Shown here one piece after another: positions 13,277 through 53,701 of a stretch of DNA of 64,000 bases (its first letter is position 1; every line of letters begins with the position of its first letter). The notes below the pieces were generated by a model, which had not been told where the DNA came from, ran no database searches, and saw nothing but the letters and a program-made list of their open reading frames with translations. The stretch comes from an uncultured Prochlorococcus sp. Lineage in GTDB: Bacteria; Cyanobacteriota; Cyanobacteriia; PCC-6307; Cyanobiaceae. Where the stretch lies: NCBI RefSeq assembly GCF_902622435.1, contig NZ_CACNQB010000003.1, one strand, 5' to 3'. The translations under genes were made by a program, and so were the position numbers.

Positions 13277-13375
13277 ATAGCATTTAGGAAGTGCTTAGCT
13301 GGTTAAATCGGTAATCTGAATTAACTAGTTCGTCATGAGCTTGCCTGTGGGATACTTGCAGGCTCTTTCAATTTT
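13277..13375 (+). ncRNA. Candidate ~95-nt sRNA with three hairpins
   Basis: TAAAAT -10 box at 13267; stems AGCATTT/AAGTGCT, AGCTGGTTAA/TTAACTAGTT and GAGCTTGC/GCAGGCTC followed by T-rich sequence. Confidence 0.55.
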
Positions 13376-19156: not shown

Positions 19157-19256
19157 TGCAGCTCCTTAACTTGCTCAAGTCCCCGTCCTATGGCTTGAGT
19201 CGTACTGCGGTCTATCAGATGGTAGATCGGACGATTTTGTAGTATTCACTACAATC
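19157..19256. ncRNA. Candidate structured RNA (~100 nt)
   Basis: About 47% GC by hand count, within AT-rich flanks; stems GCAG/CTGC, CTCAAG/CTTGAG, TCTATC/GGTAGA, TTGTAGT/ACTACAA. Confidence 0.5.
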
Positions 19257-21237: not shown

Positions 21238-21288
21238 GTGATTGACAGTCGATCTAAACTTAGAGGGATAAACCCCTCTTTTTTAATG
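21238..21288 (+). repeat. Island repeat module, copy 1
   Basis: GTGATTGACAGTCGATC-TAAACT-TAGAGGGATAAACCCCTCT-T tract-AATG. Confidence 0.9.
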
Positions 21289-21345
21289 TTTAATAGATTT
21301 TTTGCTGTAAAGATAATGACTCTTCTTATTTCTCTTTTTAGCTGA
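21286..21345 (+). CDS. 19-aa hydrophobic micro-ORF
   Basis: MFNRFFAVKIMTLLISLFS; TGATG overlap with the next ORF. Confidence 0.35.
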   Translation: MFNRFFAVKIMTLLISLFS

Positions 21346-21461
21346 TGAATATTTCCCCGCACCTATTAATTGATGCTGTGATATTAAGCGCTGCCCTTAC
21401 GATAACATTGGTATTAAGAGCAAAAGGTAATGCTGCCAGAAAAGAAAAAGAAAATAAATGA
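21345..21461 (+). CDS. 38-aa single-TM microprotein
   Basis: MNISPHLLIDAVILSAALTITLVLRAKGNAARKEKENK. Confidence 0.6.
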   Translation: MNISPHLLIDAVILSAALTITLVLRAKGNAARKEKENK

Positions 21462-21598
21462 TTACTAAAGAAGAAGAAAAAGAATTTAAAAAACCTAAAT
21501 TATATAGATTTTGGAACTTTCTTATTTATGGAAGTTCCATAGCTATTGGAGTTTTCTTAGTTTATTTATATTCTGCTTATATTTTTATAAATAAATGA
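21458..21598 (+). CDS. 46-aa single-TM microprotein
   Basis: ATGA overlap; MITKEEEKEFKKPKLYRFWNFLIYGSSIAIGVFLVYLYSAYIFINK. Confidence 0.6.
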   Translation: MITKEEEKEFKKPKLYRFWNFLIYGSSIAIGVFLVYLYSAYIFINK

Positions 21599-21690
21599 CT
21601 TATATCTACGGTATAGCGATTACTTATGGGGTTGTGAGTCTTTTATTGCTTGGTGGGTTTGCATACTTTACTTTTAAAATGAGACGCTAA
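21595..21690 (+). CDS. 31-aa single-TM microprotein
   Basis: ATGA overlap; MTYIYGIAITYGVVSLLLLGGFAYFTFKMRR. Confidence 0.6.
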   Translation: MTYIYGIAITYGVVSLLLLGGFAYFTFKMRR

Positions 21691-22057
21691 TTTTTATATC
21701 TTCTTCAATAAAGATTTATTAGATAAAATTTTTGATTTTTGTAGAGAATATCAACAAGAAATTCCACCTCAAAGGATGGCTGAGATTTTAAGAGGATATA
21801 GAGATAGATTAGATTAATGATAGATAATAGCAGACCTAAGAAGGTATTAAGAGAATAAAATTTCTAGCAAAATTTATACAAATTTTTTTAAATTTGGAAT
21901 AAATTTTTTGAAGATATTTTCCTCGCAATTATTCATAATTTGAGATTTTTTTTTGATCCTTAATCCGTACAATTTTGTTCCTCTTACCGCACACATAAAA
22001 CTTGAAACTTACTATTCAAATGAATTAGAACATAATTGTAGTCAAGGGGTAAGTCTT

Positions 22058-22210
22058 ATGGCACTAAATGACACATTTACTATCCAAGAAATTAATTTGG
22101 ATAAAAAATATCTTTCATATGACAATAAGCTAAAAGAAATTGAAGCTTATTGGAATAACGAATGTGAAGAACATCCAAGTCACAACCATTGCAAGATTTT
22201 TTGTGATTGA
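22058..22210 (+). CDS. 50-aa CP12-C-terminal-like microprotein
   Basis: AAGGGG SD; C-terminal WNNECEEHPSHNHCKIFCD (CX8C with Pro at position 5). Confidence 0.7.
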   Translation: MALNDTFTIQEINLDKKYLSYDNKLKEIEAYWNNECEEHPSHNHCKIFCD

Positions 22211-22295
22211 AACTTTAACTTTTAGGTATTCTTACGCTTGATTTTTACATAATCGCCGTACTAAAGAATAATCAGATAGAAAGGAGGCCAAGCAA

Positions 22296-22397
22296 ATGAC
22301 TAATTTAGGTATAGAAATTTTATTTTGGACAATTTTAATTTCTTATCTGGGATTAAGGTTTTCTCAAACTTGGAATGGATTCAAAAAACAGTATTAA
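22296..22397 (+). CDS. 33-aa TM microprotein (MTNLxIE family)
   Basis: Perfect AAGGAGG SD; MTNLGIEILFWTILISYLGLRFSQTWNGFKKQY. Confidence 0.75.
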   Translation: MTNLGIEILFWTILISYLGLRFSQTWNGFKKQY

Positions 22398-22412
22398 TTA
22401 GGAGAATAGAAA

Positions 22413-22559
22413 ATGAAACTACAAACTCAGTTCACGGTTCCAAAAAAAGAATTAAATGATCTTGATTATGTTAAGAAAGTAGATTTTTTAGAAGAAACTT
22501 TAAATAAAGAATGTATAGATTATCCAAATCAAGAAGATTGCTTGGTTTGTTGCAATTAA
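22413..22559 (+). CDS. 48-aa CP12-C-terminal-like microprotein
   Basis: AGGAG SD; C-terminal LNKECIDYPNQEDCLVCCN (CX8C with Pro at position 5). Confidence 0.7.
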   Translation: MKLQTQFTVPKKELNDLDYVKKVDFLEETLNKECIDYPNQEDCLVCCN

Positions 22560-22624
22560 AAATAATAAAATAGGTATTTTTTAAAAGAAAATAAAATTTT
22601 TATTAGTATTTATAAATTTTCTAA

Positions 22625-23158
22625 ATGGGAGTTAGCACTATGGAATTAAGATTCTTCCCAATAAATGTTTTTAGAGAGACTCCAAAAGTAACATTCTTCG
22701 ATGCAGGCATAGATACTTCTAATGGTTCTGATGTTGTGATCCATTCTGGGGAAGCTATATCTCCTCCAGATGATTTAGAAGATGAGCAATATTACGTTCA
22801 CAATCATCAAATTGACCACAATTTAGTTATCACCGGAGAAAGGAAATTTATTTTAATAAACCCTTTCTGGGATGAACCACATCATGTGATTTATTTAAAT
22901 AGATCTATGGGAGCATTAGAAATTCCTATAGGAACATATCACAGATCTATCTCAGGGAAAGAAGGTAGTATTGTTTTAAACCAACCCAAAAGAGATAAAT
23001 TTTTTGATCCTTCTAAAGAATTTATCCCTCAAAAATTAGACAAAATTAATTTAATTAAGGCAAGAAAAAGTCCACCTGTTTATTGGGTTTACGAAAATAA
23101 CAAAATCAAAAGAGTCTATTTTAATCCTCCAGAAAAAAAAGTTAAAACTCTTGTTTGA
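22625..23158 (+). CDS. Hypothetical protein with cupin-like His motifs
   Basis: YYVHNHQIDHNLVITG and LEIPIGTYHRS resemble cupin motifs 1 and 2. Confidence 0.7.
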   Translation: MGVSTMELRFFPINVFRETPKVTFFDAGIDTSNGSDVVIHSGEAISPPDDLEDEQYYVHNHQIDHNLVITGERKFILINPFWDEPHHVIYLNRSMGALEIPIGTYHRSISGKEGSIVLNQPKRDKFFDPSKEFIPQKLDKINLIKARKSPPVYWVYENNKIKRVYFNPPEKKVKTLV

Positions 23159-24014
23159 AATGAAAAAACATATATCCCCTAGTAATAATTTAAAAAACCT
23201 GAATTTAATTATTAATTCTGATTCTTATAAATTAGCTCACGAAGATATTGGTCTACTAAGACGAAATGAAATGCGTGGAGTCAGAATGCTTCTTGAAATT
23301 ACTAAACCAGATTTAATCCTTGAAGAAAATAAAATTCTTTCAACAATAATTATTTTTGGAGGCGCAAGCATTAAAGAAGAATCAAATATAAAAAAGAGAC
23401 TTGAAAATATAGAAGAGTTGATTAAAAAAAATCCTAAATCGATACTTTTAAAACGAAATTTAAATAGATTAGAAAATTTGCTTCTAATGAGTCATTACTA
23501 TCAATCCGCAAGGGAGTTTTCTAAACTTGCTTCAATTAGTAATCAAAATAAGAACTGTAATTCTCATGTGATTGTGACAGGTGGGGGGCCAGGAATTATG
23601 GAAGCTGCTAATAGAGGTGCATTTGAAGCAAATTGTAAATCTATAGGGTTAAATATCAGTCTCCCTAATGAACAAATCCCAAATGCTTTTATAACTCCCG
23701 ATCTTTGCTTTAAGTTTAATTATTTTGCATTAAGAAAGATCCATTTTGTCATGCGATCAGTAGCTGCTGTATTTTTCCCTGGAGGTTTTGGAACACTAGA
23801 TGAATTATTTGAACTATTGACACTTTGTCAAACAGGAATGAAAACTAAAATTCCAATCATACTTTTTGGTAGAGAGTATTGGAATAAGTTAATTAACTTT
23901 AAATATTTAGCTGATCTTGGATTAATTGAAGATGAACATTTAAATCTTTTCCAATATGCAGACTCTGCATCAGAAGCATGGAAAATTATCAAATCGTCAA
24001 AAAAGTCAGCCTAG
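23151..24014 (+). CDS. LOG family (TIGR00730-type) nucleotide-binding protein
   Basis: VTGGGPGIMEAANRGA, FALRK and PGGFGTLDELFE. Confidence 0.92.
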   Translation: MFEMKKHISPSNNLKNLNLIINSDSYKLAHEDIGLLRRNEMRGVRMLLEITKPDLILEENKILSTIIIFGGASIKEESNIKKRLENIEELIKKNPKSILLKRNLNRLENLLLMSHYYQSAREFSKLASISNQNKNCNSHVIVTGGGPGIMEAANRGAFEANCKSIGLNISLPNEQIPNAFITPDLCFKFNYFALRKIHFVMRSVAAVFFPGGFGTLDELFELLTLCQTGMKTKIPIILFGREYWNKLINFKYLADLGLIEDEHLNLFQYADSASEAWKIIKSSKKSA

Positions 24015-24051
24015 AAAACTACAAGCTGACTTGATAACAAATGAAGAATGA

Positions 24052-24168
24052 TTAATAAGTATTTGATATTTTGTTTTTCATGTTTTCAATCTTATTGATT
24101 AATTCATCTAACCATTCTGTATTATTTTGCTCTTTACTTTTATGGCTTTGGCTTTTTTGAGTACTCAT
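24052..24168 (-). CDS. 38-aa microprotein (NNTxWLDxLIN family)
   Basis: MSTQKSQSHKSKEQNNTEWLDELINKIENMKNKISNTY. Confidence 0.6.
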   Translation of the reverse strand: MSTQKSQSHKSKEQNNTEWLDELINKIENMKNKISNTY

Positions 24169-24564
24169 AAATTTCTTACTTTTATGGTTTATTTAATATA
24201 TCTTCAGAAATTAAAGGAATCAATAAGCAATATTACCAAATCGATTGATAAAACAAGCTTTAGTAGCATTTCATACAAACCTAACCATCACAAATTAACT
24301 AAGAAAATCTAAATCTCTTCAGTTAAGTATTTTCTACGATGTTTTTATTTTAAATTCTGATTTGAATTAGGAAAGGTATAAATGTTTCTATGGAAAAATC
24401 ATTTCTAAATTTCATTTATTGGATCTTGGTAAAGTCAGCTGAAAGTTATTACGGAGATTCATTAAAAACAGAAGTACCTTATACTCCTTATTTTTAGTTT
24501 TGGTGGACTTTAACTTTTAATATTAGATCTCTATTTTGAGAGTTATTAGTTTGGAATTAATTTA

Positions 24565-24723
24565 TTAAAAAACACAATATGGGTTACTTATAGATTCACT
24601 ACAAAATAATTGCTTACGTTGAATTTCTTTTACTGATTGTGAATAAATTTTAGCGGTAAGGATCGCGCCAAAATTAACTAAAACTACAATTAAAAGTAGT
24701 AGCTCAATTGCGAGGTTGGTCAT
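24565..24723 (-). CDS. 52-aa TM microprotein (MTNLxIE family) with C-terminal CX8C
   Basis: AAGGAGG SD; MTNLAIELLLLIVVLVNFGAILTAKIYSQSVKEIQRKQLFCSESISNPYCVF. Confidence 0.7.
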   Translation of the reverse strand: MTNLAIELLLLIVVLVNFGAILTAKIYSQSVKEIQRKQLFCSESISNPYCVF

Positions 24724-24800
24724 AAGATTACCCTCCTTAAATCTATATAAAAACTCTATAAGGTCAAAATAGGTATTGAATAGAGTTTAAATTCCTATTT

Positions 24801-24965
24801 TTAGCCATCGAGATTCTCTGGTAATAATCTAGGTTCACAATTTACGACGCATTCTTCTAGAGACTTTTCAGTATTACTCTTAATTTCGCAACTACGAAGA
24901 CAATCATAGAAGGCATACTTGGGATCTAATTCATTTTTGAATTGTTTATTTCTAAATGTATTCAT
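24801..24965 (-). CDS. 54-aa twin CX3C microprotein
   Basis: AAAGGGAG SD; YDCLRSC...EECVVNC. Confidence 0.7.
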   Translation of the reverse strand: MNTFRNKQFKNELDPKYAFYDCLRSCEIKSNTEKSLEECVVNCEPRLLPENLDG

Positions 24966-24967
24966 GA

Positions 24968-25075
24968 TCAAACTCCCTTTGATTTTTTTTCAAGTTGATT
25001 AATTAATTTATCCAACCAAAGAGTGTTATTGATCTTTTTTATGTTTTTAAAGTATTTCGTTTTGTAAGTACTCAT
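24968..25075 (-). CDS. 35-aa microprotein (NNTxWLDxLIN family)
   Basis: GGAGG SD; MSTYKTKYFKNIKKINNTLWLDKLINQLEKKSKGV. Confidence 0.7.
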   Translation of the reverse strand: MSTYKTKYFKNIKKINNTLWLDKLINQLEKKSKGV

Positions 25076-25266
25076 GAAGTAAAACCTCCAATCAGTGGAT
25101 CTAATTTAAAGGTGATGATTCAAATTTGCTAGAGCAAAAATACTGATTATGAATTTAGTGAAATATTTTAAAAACGATTAATTTATAGTTTGTATTTTAG
25201 GTATTAAAACTCTTGATTCTTATATATAACTAATACTAAATAACTTCTAAAGAAAGGGGGTTAATT

Positions 25267-25437
25267 ATGACTTACGGAAATCTAATTAAAAATAAAATTC
25301 AACATGCATTTGTTGGTCTGTTTGATACGTTATCAATTGAGAGAAAACTAACTGATGCTCAAAAAGAATGTATGCAATTCGGAATTTGTGCGTACTCTCC
25401 AAGACAAGTTAAGGAAGTTCCCTTTTTTCATTATTAA
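25267..25437 (+). CDS. 56-aa hypothetical protein
   Basis: AAGGGGG SD; MTYGNLIKNKIQHAFVGLFDTLSIERKLTDAQKECMQFGICAYSPRQVKEVPFFHY. Confidence 0.65.
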   Translation: MTYGNLIKNKIQHAFVGLFDTLSIERKLTDAQKECMQFGICAYSPRQVKEVPFFHY

Positions 25438-25464
25438 TTTTAATTTATTTTAAACGAAGAGCAA

Positions 25465-25779
25465 TTAGCTCCTCCTCACCCAATCAGGCGATCCACTAAA
25501 CCAATCAGCAAGATCATCATTTTTGGGATCGAAATGATTTTCAGCTTCTAGACCATCAAGGCCAAGATTCTGGATAAGTCCATTTATTCCATCTGATTTT
25601 TGCTTGCCATATCTCCTCAAACTATTTGCTTTCTTAAGCCATGTCCATATAGTTGAATTATGTTTTGCAAACTTTTCTACATAAATTCTTTCTTCCAATG
25701 CCACAGGTTCATCTAGTGAAATCCTATTTACAATATCCTTGATTTTTAAACGAGTTTTGTTGGTTAGAAACATATTCAT
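25465..25779 (-). CDS. Hypothetical protein
   Basis: 104-aa ORF with conserved-looking C-terminus DDLADWFSGSPDWVRRS. Confidence 0.8.
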   Translation of the reverse strand: MNMFLTNKTRLKIKDIVNRISLDEPVALEERIYVEKFAKHNSTIWTWLKKANSLRRYGKQKSDGINGLIQNLGLDGLEAENHFDPKNDDLADWFSGSPDWVRRS

Positions 25780-26060
25780 AAAAGAAGTTAATGATTTATA
25801 AAAGTTTTTTTTATGAATGTCTTGTCAATCTTTATTTCAAGAAAAAGTATTTTTTAATGGCTTTTCAAGGACAAATATATTTATTTAACAACAGGTATAT
25901 TGAATTGGTAAAAAAGACTACTTAATTTGATTTATATAACTTATATAAAAAAGACTTCTATATAAGTTTCTCTACATAATTTAAGATTTAATTTATAAAA
26001 TTTAATAAGGAAAATATACATTGACAAACAATCTAAAATAATGGGCAATTAGCTCTTTTT

Positions 26061-26438
26061 TTAATAGCAAAGTACGCTATCCGCTTTAATTGATTCTTCA
26101 ACTAGAACATCTGGCATAACAAACTCTGCAGTATATCCATCTAGAAGCTTTTCATCGTAACCCCTAGATTTAGCAGACATTCCTGAGACATATATGGTAA
26201 TTTTTGAATTCTTTAAATTTTGAAGATGTTCGTATAAATCTCCAGTACCTTGACCAACTATTTCACCAGCTTTTTTGCAATTTAATATTTGTACTCCGTC
26301 TCCTGCTAGAAAAAGTGTTACTTTATGGTCGTTTTTTTCTGCAGTAAGGGCAACCAATAAACCTAAAGTTATTTTATTTTTGGATTCTAAACCGCTGTAA
26401 ATATGTACTAACACTGTATTGTCGGTAATGATAGACAT
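26061..26438 (-). CDS. DsrE family protein
   Basis: VTLFLAGDGV motif, GGAGG SD; the usual catalytic Cys position reads VSGMSAKSRG. Confidence 0.82.
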   Translation of the reverse strand: MSIITDNTVLVHIYSGLESKNKITLGLLVALTAEKNDHKVTLFLAGDGVQILNCKKAGEIVGQGTGDLYEHLQNLKNSKITIYVSGMSAKSRGYDEKLLDGYTAEFVMPDVLVEESIKADSVLCY

Positions 26439-26539
26439 TTAATCCTCCCTAAATTTTGTTTTTATATCTTAAATAAAATCTATTTTCATTAGATGTTTTT
26501 TTATGAAACGCTTACTACTTGTACCTCTATATTAATTAC

Positions 26540-26586
26540 GATTGACAGTCGATCTAAAATAAGGGGCATTAGCTCCTTTTTTAATG
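26540..26586 (+). repeat. Island repeat module, copy 2
   Basis: GATTGACAGTCGATC-TAAAAT-AAGGGGCATTAGCTCCTT-T tract-AATG (start of the DUF3804 gene). Confidence 0.85.
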
Positions 26587-26967
26587 TCAAACACTAAAGC
26601 CATAGAAGATTTAATTAATGGTTATGCAACCAGTGAAGATTCTTCTTTTCTAATACCAAACGTAACTGAGGATTTTTTAGCTGTAAGACCAAGTGGAAAT
26701 CCAATATCTGCTAAGGGATTAGTGGGAATGTTTGATAGTAAAGACTTAATTGCAGAATCATCAGAACTAATCAAAACCCACAAAATTGAAATTTACGGTG
26801 AGATAGCTTACGCAGTTTTTACTTTAAATGAAATCTTCAGTTATAAAGGAAATCAAAATAAAGATCTTTCAACTTATACTTGCATTTTTAAAAATGTAAA
26901 TGGTATTTGGAAGTATTCTTGGATGCAAAGATCTCAAGGCACTACTGATATGACCACATGGGAATAA
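26584..26967 (+). CDS. DUF3804 / SnoaL-NTF2-like protein
   Basis: AVRPSGNP and WMQRS motifs; paralog of 18186. Confidence 0.85.
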   Translation: MSNTKAIEDLINGYATSEDSSFLIPNVTEDFLAVRPSGNPISAKGLVGMFDSKDLIAESSELIKTHKIEIYGEIAYAVFTLNEIFSYKGNQNKDLSTYTCIFKNVNGIWKYSWMQRSQGTTDMTTWE

Positions 26968-27117
26968 ATGAAACGATTACTACTCCCACCACTGTTCAAA
27001 CTATTCAACAAAAGCACCTTCTTTTCGTCACTAAATCAAAATACCTGCCCTGTCTTGGATGCTGAAGAGATAAAAAAGCAAGAACAAAATGAAGCTATTA
27101 AAAAGTTATATCCATAA
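26968..27117 (+). CDS. 49-aa microprotein, duplicate A
   Basis: MKRLLLPPLFKLFNKSTFFSSLNQNTCPVLDAEEIKKQEQNEAIKKLYP; paralog at 30513. Confidence 0.75.
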   Translation: MKRLLLPPLFKLFNKSTFFSSLNQNTCPVLDAEEIKKQEQNEAIKKLYP

Positions 27118-27296
27118 AATTTAAACAGAAATTTCTTAGGTCATATTAAAAGCTTTTGAACGATCGTATATTCCCCATACCATCCATCACTTTCCTAAAT
27201 AGGAACTTTGCATGATAATTAATATATAAAAGCGAATAGTATGCTGATACATTCACGATTCGTTCACGATTTGCAATTTACTCCAAATCCTTTGAT

Positions 27297-27341
27297 ATGA
27301 CTAAAGAAAATTTTTGGATAATGAACCATGTACCAGCTTGA
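27297..27341 (+). pseudogene. 5' remnant of the EVE-domain gene
   Basis: MTKENFWIMNHVPA* versus MTEKNFWLMKSEP at 30830; upstream CCTTTGATATG versus CCCTTGATATG. Confidence 0.7.
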
Positions 27342-27442
27342 TATAACTAGGTTTTTTGAAATTTATAAATTTTATTCTAGCAAAATTCTAGCAACACTAA
27401 TAAATATAAAGCATCCATTGAGGTAAAGATTTAGGATAATTT

Positions 27443-27495
27443 GTGATTGACATTCGATCTAAACTTAGAGGGATAAAACCCTCTTTTTTTTGATG
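27443..27495 (+). repeat. Island repeat module, copy 3
   Basis: GTGATTGACATTCGATC-TAAACT-TAGAGGGATAAAACCCTCT-T tract-GATG. Confidence 0.9.
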
Positions 27496-27666
27496 AGAAA
27501 CAAATTTAAAAGATCAGCTTTTTTTGATATGTCTGATGACCTTTTCTATCGAATATCATTAATAGGATTTTTAGTTGTTTTTAGCTCAATGGTATTTTTC
27601 CTAACGAAATATAGAGAAAAAAAAGTTAATAATATAAGCCAGATTTCCATAACTGAACAAATTTAA
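27493..27666 (+). CDS. 57-aa single-TM microprotein
   Basis: MRNKFKRSAFFDMSDDLFYRISLIGFLVVFSSMVFFLTKYREKKVNNISQISITEQI. Confidence 0.6.
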   Translation: MRNKFKRSAFFDMSDDLFYRISLIGFLVVFSSMVFFLTKYREKKVNNISQISITEQI

Positions 27667-53582: not shown

Positions 53583-53645
53583 ATTCACGCTTGGACATCC
53601 TTTCTTTTAAGAATGGGTCTGATATATTCAGACCTACGCGATTAG
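53583..53645 (-). ncRNA. ATPC-type cis-regulatory RNA between subunit a and c genes
   Basis: Perfect GGTCTGA/TCAGACC stem plus CATTC/GGATG and CGC/GCG stems; this position is where the ATPC RNA motif is described in Prochlorococcus. Confidence 0.75.
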
Positions 53646-53701
53646 ATATTTTGCCAGATTACAGACTCTTTGTAAAAGCGTCTGAATGTATTAGAAGACG
53701 G

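Follow-up and report, generated by a model that had tools for sequence, protein, structure and literature searches.

A stretch of 64,000 nucleotides of uncultured Prochlorococcus DNA (contig NZ_CACNQB010000003.1 of assembly GCF_902622435.1; the whole stretch is called the window below) carries, between positions 21,238 and 27,495, three copies of a short module that ends at the start codons of unrelated genes. From comparison with other genomes of the genus and with mapped start sites of Prochlorococcus MED4, we conclude that this module is very likely a promoter with its start site at a predictable place, and we find that its conserved core is a synteny joint, at which upstream and downstream segments assort independently between genomes, a conclusion we hold with high confidence. 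Taken as a whole package, the module is probably a self-contained expression unit for the flexible island genes of high-light Prochlorococcus, to which the source of the window belongs. That the ~20 bp of core and -10 box double as the control region of an island regulon and as an integrase-free joint between cassettes is put forward more tentatively, as a possibility that we regard as somewhat doubtful.

All three window copies are located on the plus strand, and their presence was checked directly on the sequence. They have the same order of parts: a 15-bp near-palindrome GATTGACA(G/T)TCGATC, a hexamer (TAAACT or TAAAAT), an inverted repeat, a run of six to eight T and an ATG, and the 19-mer GATTGACAKTCGATCTAAA has three matches in the window versus 0.06 expected from shuffles. 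The near-palindrome begins at 21240, 26540 and 27445, with the ATG at 21286, 26584 and 27493, i.e. 46, 44 and 48 nt from the palindrome start. The first-pass annotation of this DNA had described these shared parts and the ATG at 44-48 nt, all of which are seen in each of the three copies; its starting position of 26540 is correct, while those of 21238 and 27443 had counted two extra bases (GT). In the first copy the near-palindromic core GATTGACAGTCGATC (21240..21254), which is the invariant core across the 270 copies described below, is followed by TAAACT (21255..21260), the inverted repeat AGAGGG-ATAAAC-CCCTCT (21262..21279), and the T-run and ATG (21280..21288) of a 19-amino acid peptide heading a chain of very small open reading frames (micro-ORFs). 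The second copy consists of its core (26540..26554), TAAAAT (26555..26560) and the differently built repeat AAGGGGC-ATTA-GCTCCTT with T-run (26561..26583), and precedes a DUF3804 gene (26584..26967, Pfam E=7e-51). The third has the core GATTGACATTCGATC (27445..27459), TAAACT (27460..27465) and AGAGGG-ATAAAA-CCCTCT with T-run (27467..27492), and precedes a gene for a 57-amino acid membrane peptide (27493..27666) with no Pfam match; the three downstream genes are unrelated, as had been noted from the letters alone. A coding reading of the module, suggested by ORFs at 21238 and 26493, was rejected because the length of the T-run varies.

A search of other genomes, which the first-pass annotation had proposed, showed that the module recurs throughout the genus: TTGACAGTCGATCTAAA, with one mismatch allowed, is matched in 120 of the 121 genomes, usually at 3-15 places in each, and a reversed control pattern had no match in the same 121 genomes. 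The 1.52-Mb genome that contains the window has ~16 copies (~12 canonical and four variant or decayed), which are grouped in a few regions and near contig ends. Conservation was counted on 270 distinct copies, gathered from the retrieved loci and from this genome, with positions counted from the first T of TTGACA. The A at position -1, which lies outside the search pattern, is conserved in 95% of the copies, and the hexamer is TAAAAT in 94, TAAACT in 41, TAACAT in 31 and TACAAT in 27 copies (together 193/270), with its last T conserved in 94% although this base is also outside the search pattern. There is no conservation upstream of position -3 in the 270 copies, and no -35 box. The first ATG follows 22-27 nt after the hexamer in 148 of the 270 copies, with a mode of 24. 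All collected copies are in one orientation, directly 5' of a downstream gene, rather than being randomly oriented to genes. The genes behind the module belong to many unrelated families: the downstream peptides of 171 copies form 65 clusters, and the flanks of 253 copies form 112 families. They include DUF3764, DUF3804, DUF1330 and DUF3303 members as well as many peptides without a Pfam family.

The hexamer is a sigma-70-type -10 box, as had been supposed at first pass: TAAAAT and its variants TAAACT, TACAAT and TAACAT fit the pattern TAnnnT with its well-conserved final T, and start sites in MED4 lie 7-9 nt downstream. These start sites were taken from the TSSAR tables of differential RNA sequencing of MED4, which cover four libraries (PMC5607370, Read et al. 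2017); the genome taken here as MED4 (G015) agrees to the base with the published distances from start site to gene. The starts predicted from the module copies were 358183-358186, 359627-359630, 359989-359992 and 1347112-1347115, and all four of the listed starts fall within these windows: 358183(-), 16 nt upstream of PMM0377; 359627(-), which is assigned to no gene; 359991(-), 20 nt upstream of PMM0379; and 1347115(+), 16 nt upstream of PMM1401 (PMC5607370). The first three are found in all four libraries and 1347115 in the two 12 h libraries only (PMC5607370). Measured from the first T of TTGACA, the four starts are 25-27 nt downstream, and measured from the hexamer 7-9 nt. With a few thousand sites per 3.3 Mb of strand, we put the probability that four of 14 copies would have a start in their 4-nt window by chance at ~1e-6. 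A decayed MED4 copy, with TAAAAA for the -10 box and a broken 3' arm, has no listed start site. In the register of the MED4 start sites, transcription of the window copies is predicted to begin at ~21267-21269, in the loop of the inverted repeat, at ~26567-26569, giving a 16-nt leader, and at ~27472-27474, all on the plus strand.

The module has no -35 hexamer at 16-18 bp upstream of the -10 box, and the TTGACA of its core is only 7 bp away. In Prochlorococcus, promoters commonly lack a -35 box, and its absence here is therefore no argument against a promoter, while the 7-bp gap rules out that TTGACA is used as the -35 box. We also considered TTGACA as a real -35 box combined with a -10 box in the loop, and rejected this since the mapped starts do not fit.

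The position of the start site determines how the inverted repeat is to be read. In the copy upstream of PMM0377, transcription starts at the second A of CAACTAG, which is the loop of the inverted repeat. With the start site in the loop, the G-rich 5' arm is the discriminator of the promoter and is not transcribed, and the C/U-rich 3' arm and the U-run are the leader. This leader is 16-20 nt long, pyrimidine-rich, without a Shine-Dalgarno site and directly joined to the AUG, and the window RNAs from the predicted start fold at only -0.4 to -3.3 kcal/mol (z about 0), i.e. they are unstructured. The fixed geometry to the ATG, singled out at first pass as the feature requiring explanation, is real as a spacing but does not need a special one: as the start site lies 16-20 nt before the ATG, it reflects a short leader such as is often seen in MED4, where leaders of 14-18 nt recur in the start-site table and are often exactly 16 nt (PMC5607370). 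Initiation dependent on protein S1 has been proposed for pyrimidine-rich leaders in MED4 (PMC5607370), and S1 would similarly bring ribosomes to the leader of the module.

Two other roles of the inverted repeat have to be weighed. The first-pass annotation had suggested an attenuator, in which hairpin and U-run end the promoter's own transcripts early unless this is relieved, and there is indeed a terminator-like sequence between promoter and ATG. However, in all four mapped MED4 copies the start lies in the loop, so that the 5' arm is not transcribed, the mRNA has the 3' arm only and cannot fold the hairpin, and the resulting RNA is unstructured; the attenuator reading thus fails for the transcripts of this promoter and is extremely improbable. 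A terminator within the promoter is a more serious alternative, albeit still an unlikely one. Here the repeat and U-run would mainly be an intrinsic terminator or 3' stabiliser of the upstream gene, and the module a full 45-nt intergenic unit made up of the terminator of the left gene and the promoter of the right gene. The stem and T-run are of textbook type, GC-rich, and read-through RNA of the whole module folds into two hairpins at -13 to -14 kcal/mol (z -2.7 to -4.3). In 93 of 253 copies, an upstream ORF that runs in the same direction and has at least 60 codons stops 0-18 nt short of the core, often at the TGA within gaTTGAc, which leaves the stem as the sole candidate terminator for such a gene. 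The stem itself comes in three versions of different sequence (classes A, B and C) at one and the same position in the module. Against this, the stem is stable in 42% of copies with a co-directional upstream gene versus 50% of those without (p=0.32), and the operons PMM0376-0378 and PMM0379-0380 predicted by Rockhopper cross two module sites (PMC5607370). Covariation in class B is no better than in shuffles, and by our own estimate a purine run facing a pyrimidine run pairs at ~75% per position by composition alone. The inverted repeat may nevertheless stop or stabilise read-through RNA from the upstream gene. With regard to selection on the fold, which had been proposed from the window copies, the same structure is indeed formed by different sequences, and compensated stem variants are found elsewhere (AGAGAG/CTCTCT, AAAGAGC/GCTCTTT, AGGGGG/CCCCCT), but the case for selection is weak, as pairing in class B (82.5%) equals that in shuffled controls (82.3%). 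There is a mild enrichment of two-sided changes in class B (14 versus 8.8 expected, reached by 14 of 500 shuffles). Each arm may instead be kept for its own reason, one as a G-rich discriminator and the other as a pyrimidine-rich leader.

The core TTGACAGTCGATC, of 13-15 bp, is located at about -27 to -15 relative to the predicted start, fills the spacer and always adjoins the -10 box in canonical copies. It is a 7-1-7 dyad with one asymmetric pair, and the commonest variant, a G to A change at position 9, makes the dyad perfect. Both its position and its symmetry are what one would expect of an operator bound by a dimeric protein that would hinder the polymerase, and we consider the chances of the core being the operator of a DNA-binding protein to be evenly balanced; from the position of the core, such a protein would most likely be a repressor, and it would join some 10-20 cassettes per genome into one regulon. 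The CGRE1/PMM1637 system was examined as a possible identity of the module and rejected, being a different motif at a different position. Similarly, Dam methylation of the GATC in the core was rejected: no Dam-like methylase motif was found, and with 4854 sites versus 4413 expected GATC is neither enriched nor depleted.

The class C variant has no -10 box: its core runs straight into the stronger stem GGGGGC-TTTTA-GCCCCC and then a T-run. It was found at C1:59221(-) and C1:56550(-) in the genome of the window and at four other loci (L032, L039, L047 and L197), with a conserved longer leader ATTTAGGAATTCAAAATAAATTAAT and then a MASTFYIVHHEF gene, all of one gene family. A paralog of this gene has a normal class B module before the same leader. 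In MED4, the start site of PMM0378 is located 77 nt after a decayed core.

The evidence for the core as a synteny joint comes from pairwise comparison of the 400-nt flanks of 253 copies. While 239 pairs match on both flanks, 201 pairs match upstream exactly to the module edge and not downstream, and 282 pairs match downstream exactly from the module edge and not upstream. Control pseudo-junctions placed 700 nt to either side gave only 1+1 and 6+0 such pairs, whereas offsets of 300-500 nt gave intermediate numbers, probably because neighbouring modules are spaced at about this distance. One upstream context meets up to seven different downstream genes. The three nucleotides left of the core track the upstream flank (0.66 versus 0.17 background), and the hairpin partly tracks the downstream gene (0.64, versus 0.50; background 0.44). 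Identity breaks between -3 and about +19, which places the exchange within the core and the -10 box. Tabulating synteny breaks, a check proposed at first pass, has thus shown that they coincide with the core (201 and 282 pairs). A recombination site had been offered there as one of two readings, and of this the breaks at the core and not at the controls stand, while a site-specific mechanism of integron type is not supported, with no recombinase found in a rough scan and no attC architecture.

The window copies show the same behaviour to different degrees. The locus of the first copy is stable, with both sides syntenic in 14 of 16 related copies. Orthologs of the second copy's DUF3804 gene occur in four different contexts on the upstream side, with the joint at the core in every case, and the upstream context of the second copy itself meets three different genes, while the gene for the 57-amino acid peptide behind the third copy has two different upstream contexts. 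In another locus (L138), the sequence at 26521 is joined to the third copy's gene at 27483, without 26522-27482, so that the missing segment is roughly the unit between two cores. Most cassettes are single small genes; of 249 informative pairs, 85 have a further core at the right-hand end of the cassette.

Position 26521 lies in a stub, ATGAAACGCTTACTACTTGTACC..., which occupies 26503..26539 (+) directly before the second core and repeats, in truncated form, the beginning of the gene at 26968. This 37-nt stub AAATGAAACGCTTACTACTTGCACCGCTATATTAAATAC corresponds to the first codons of an MKRLLL... gene and precedes the core in 28 of the 270 copies (~10%); the sequence left of the stub and the gene behind the module both differ between stub copies. 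In the window, 26503-26539 and 26968-27000 bracket the DUF3804 cassette as an imperfect direct repeat, and MED4 carries the stub near 359690.

Homologous recombination between modules is the route of cassette exchange that we favour, with about as much to be said for it as against it. The genome is 99.94% complete, and a rough scan of all its reading frames for motifs gave no tyrosine or serine recombinase signature, which makes homologous exchange between modules the likelier route, and in the same kind of motif scan the box II motif (HxLRH...) was present in no reading frame of at least 90 amino acids. Cassettes would share ~20 bp, the core and -10 box, at their 5' end, and recombination there would delete, insert or swap them, with every recombinant keeping a working promoter. 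Within a genome this would lead to deletions and duplications, and with incoming DNA to replacements. Although such exchange would proceed slowly in the individual cell, very large populations would make it effective, and selection would favour the recombinants that keep the promoter.

The core has two further possible explanations, one for each of its proposed roles. It could be the crossover site of a dedicated recombinase which moves the cassettes, like an integron attC site. The joints are located exactly at a short conserved near-palindrome, and the arrays of single small genes of unknown function recall the first look of the Vibrio cholerae repeats (VCR). There is also a ~3.4-kb contig from a Red Sea plasmidome, ~99% identical to Prochlorococcus and carrying a DUF3764 gene (PMC10434023), which matches Prochlorococcus RS04/RS01/RS50 (PMC10434023) and may be either a segment cut out of an island or a loop that the assembly made through repeats. 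Set against these are the negative scan for recombinases, the promoter carried by each cassette, unlike in integron cassettes, and the low share of pairs (85/249) in which the right-hand cassette end is a core. Furthermore, a 7-1-7 palindrome lacks the 6-8 bp overlap of tyrosine recombinase sites and is too short for serine recombinases, and a dedicated recombinase is accordingly quite improbable. The alternative for the control function is that RNA polymerase with a particular sigma factor reads the core directly, as an unusual extended promoter element. In favour of this, the core adjoins the -10 box at a fixed distance and contains a perfect TTGACA, with no -35 box at the normal place. However, by established geometry sigma-70 regions 2 and 4 cannot bridge a 7-bp gap, the dyad symmetry points to a dimeric protein, and class C has the core without a -10 box; we therefore regard direct reading by the polymerase as improbable, if slightly less so than a recombinase site.

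Several observations weigh against this interpretation of the module. In only four of the 14 MED4 copies does a listed start fall where it is predicted, and the start-site evidence comes from MED4 and not from the copies of this genome. The exact -35 consensus TTGACA at only 7 bp from the -10 box does not follow from this interpretation, and in addition to the shuffle-like pairing in class B, about one third of the distinct sequences have a weak or broken stem. To our knowledge there is no known protein that binds the core. Under nitrogen starvation, the strengths of the four MED4 starts follow no common course, and there is thus no hint of a shared regulon under this stress. As class C keeps the core without a -10 box, the core may act beyond the adjacent promoter and have a role independent of it. 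Homologous recombination on ~20 bp of identity is inefficient in model bacteria. Finally, assembled metatranscriptome contigs contain the core or module region with varied flanks, and here the core is part of read-through transcripts or of DNA carry-over.

With regard to the origin of the module, Rfam covariance models had no match on any module copy, either at the gathering threshold or with E up to 5. A phage origin was rejected: the module was not found in the cultured phages in GenBank, and of 34 matches to the 15-mer in IMG/VR, true modules are present on three contigs only (L057, L074 and L077), the remaining matches being chance hits in coding sequence. These three contigs, of which L074 has two copies, are filed as viral and have modules with Prochlorococcus-type cassettes; they could represent either island DNA of the host that entered the viral fraction or island pieces that are themselves mobile. 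A tRNA origin was also rejected. There is a match of 14 of the 15 core positions, GATTAACAGTCGATC, across the anticodon arm of tRNA-Asn(GTT) at C1:275915-275929 (+), but the flanks share nothing, and with ~0.1 such match expected it is probably due to chance.

Operators lying over -10-only cyanobacterial promoters, such as LexA- and Fur-type repressor sites and CGRE1/PMM1637 (PMC6191309), likewise consist of a dyad box at a fixed distance from the start of many unrelated genes, and the example of CGRE1 shows both the presence of such boxes in MED4 and a way to find the protein that binds them (PMC6191309). CGRE1 itself is a 22-nt motif flanked by GTTA and usually at -55, to which the module core is unrelated in sequence, and neither does the core fit the NtcA site GTA-N8-TAC. 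Unlike known operators, the box of the module comes with a -10 box, discriminator and leader that are nearly the same from copy to copy, and synteny joints are located at this box. The integron attC sites and VCR similarly bound single small genes of unknown function with short repeats, in variable arrays with joints at the core, but attC sites fold over 57-141 nt and integron cassettes have no promoter, whereas the module is 48 bp with two separate small dyads and a promoter for each cassette. Also unlike attC and VCR, the repeat is located at the 5' end of the gene, with no integrase signature found in the rough scan. The Correia repeats of Neisseria, repetitive extragenic palindromic (REP) sequences and bacterial interspersed mosaic elements (BIME) are likewise short intergenic repeats which supply promoters or terminators and are substrates for recombination. 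In contrast to Correia and REP repeats and to miniature inverted-repeat transposable elements, the ends of the module (TGATTGAC... and ...CTCTTTTTT) are not inverted repeats, and there is no target-site duplication; in contrast to Correia, REP and BIME repeats, it is found in one orientation before an ATG, with no sign of the 48-bp unit moving alone. The first-pass annotation had noted a likeness in size and island setting to PRE1, a Prochlorococcus repeat of ~48 nt, without confirming identity of sequence, and no paper linking PRE1 and Prochlorococcus was present in the searchable literature.

The remaining features of the window concern its setting. The 19-amino acid peptide behind the first copy is MFNRFFAVKIMTLLISLFS, with overlapping micro-ORFs following it (locus 21286-21690), and its start is kept in 14 related single-cell genomes. 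The MED4 homolog of the last micro-ORF (MYGIAITYGVISLLLLGGFAYLTFKMIKK) is found at ~359290, 3' of another module. Rfam matches in the window are Yfr20 at 13278-13364 (+), a glutamine-II riboswitch at 19174-19236 (-) and an ATPC motif at 53586-53676 (-). As Yfr20 is the sole small RNA of MED4 island 5 (PMC2518516), the window probably corresponds to that island.

No description or sequence of the module was found in the searchable literature, including the papers on islands, small RNAs and tycheposons that were checked, although an earlier description is possible. The combination of promoter and operator is already known in kind; what looks new is a near-identical unit before dozens of unrelated genes, a start within an inverted repeat, and the exact match with cassette joints. 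What distinguishes Prochlorococcus populations from one another is mainly small sets of functionally uncharacterised island genes, and the organism is known to have very few regulators. For these genomes the module provides a defined bait for a missing regulator, a list of genes that are likely controlled together, and a concrete sequence for measuring the gain, loss and exchange of cassettes. The module is also an example of how control signals, possibly including a terminator, can be packed into ~45 nt between the genes of a minimal genome. If the dual role of the core and -10 box is true, the module would be a recombinase-free counterpart of the integron, in which each recombinant is expressed at once under the same control, and this might explain the diversity that wild Prochlorococcus populations show at the level of cassettes.

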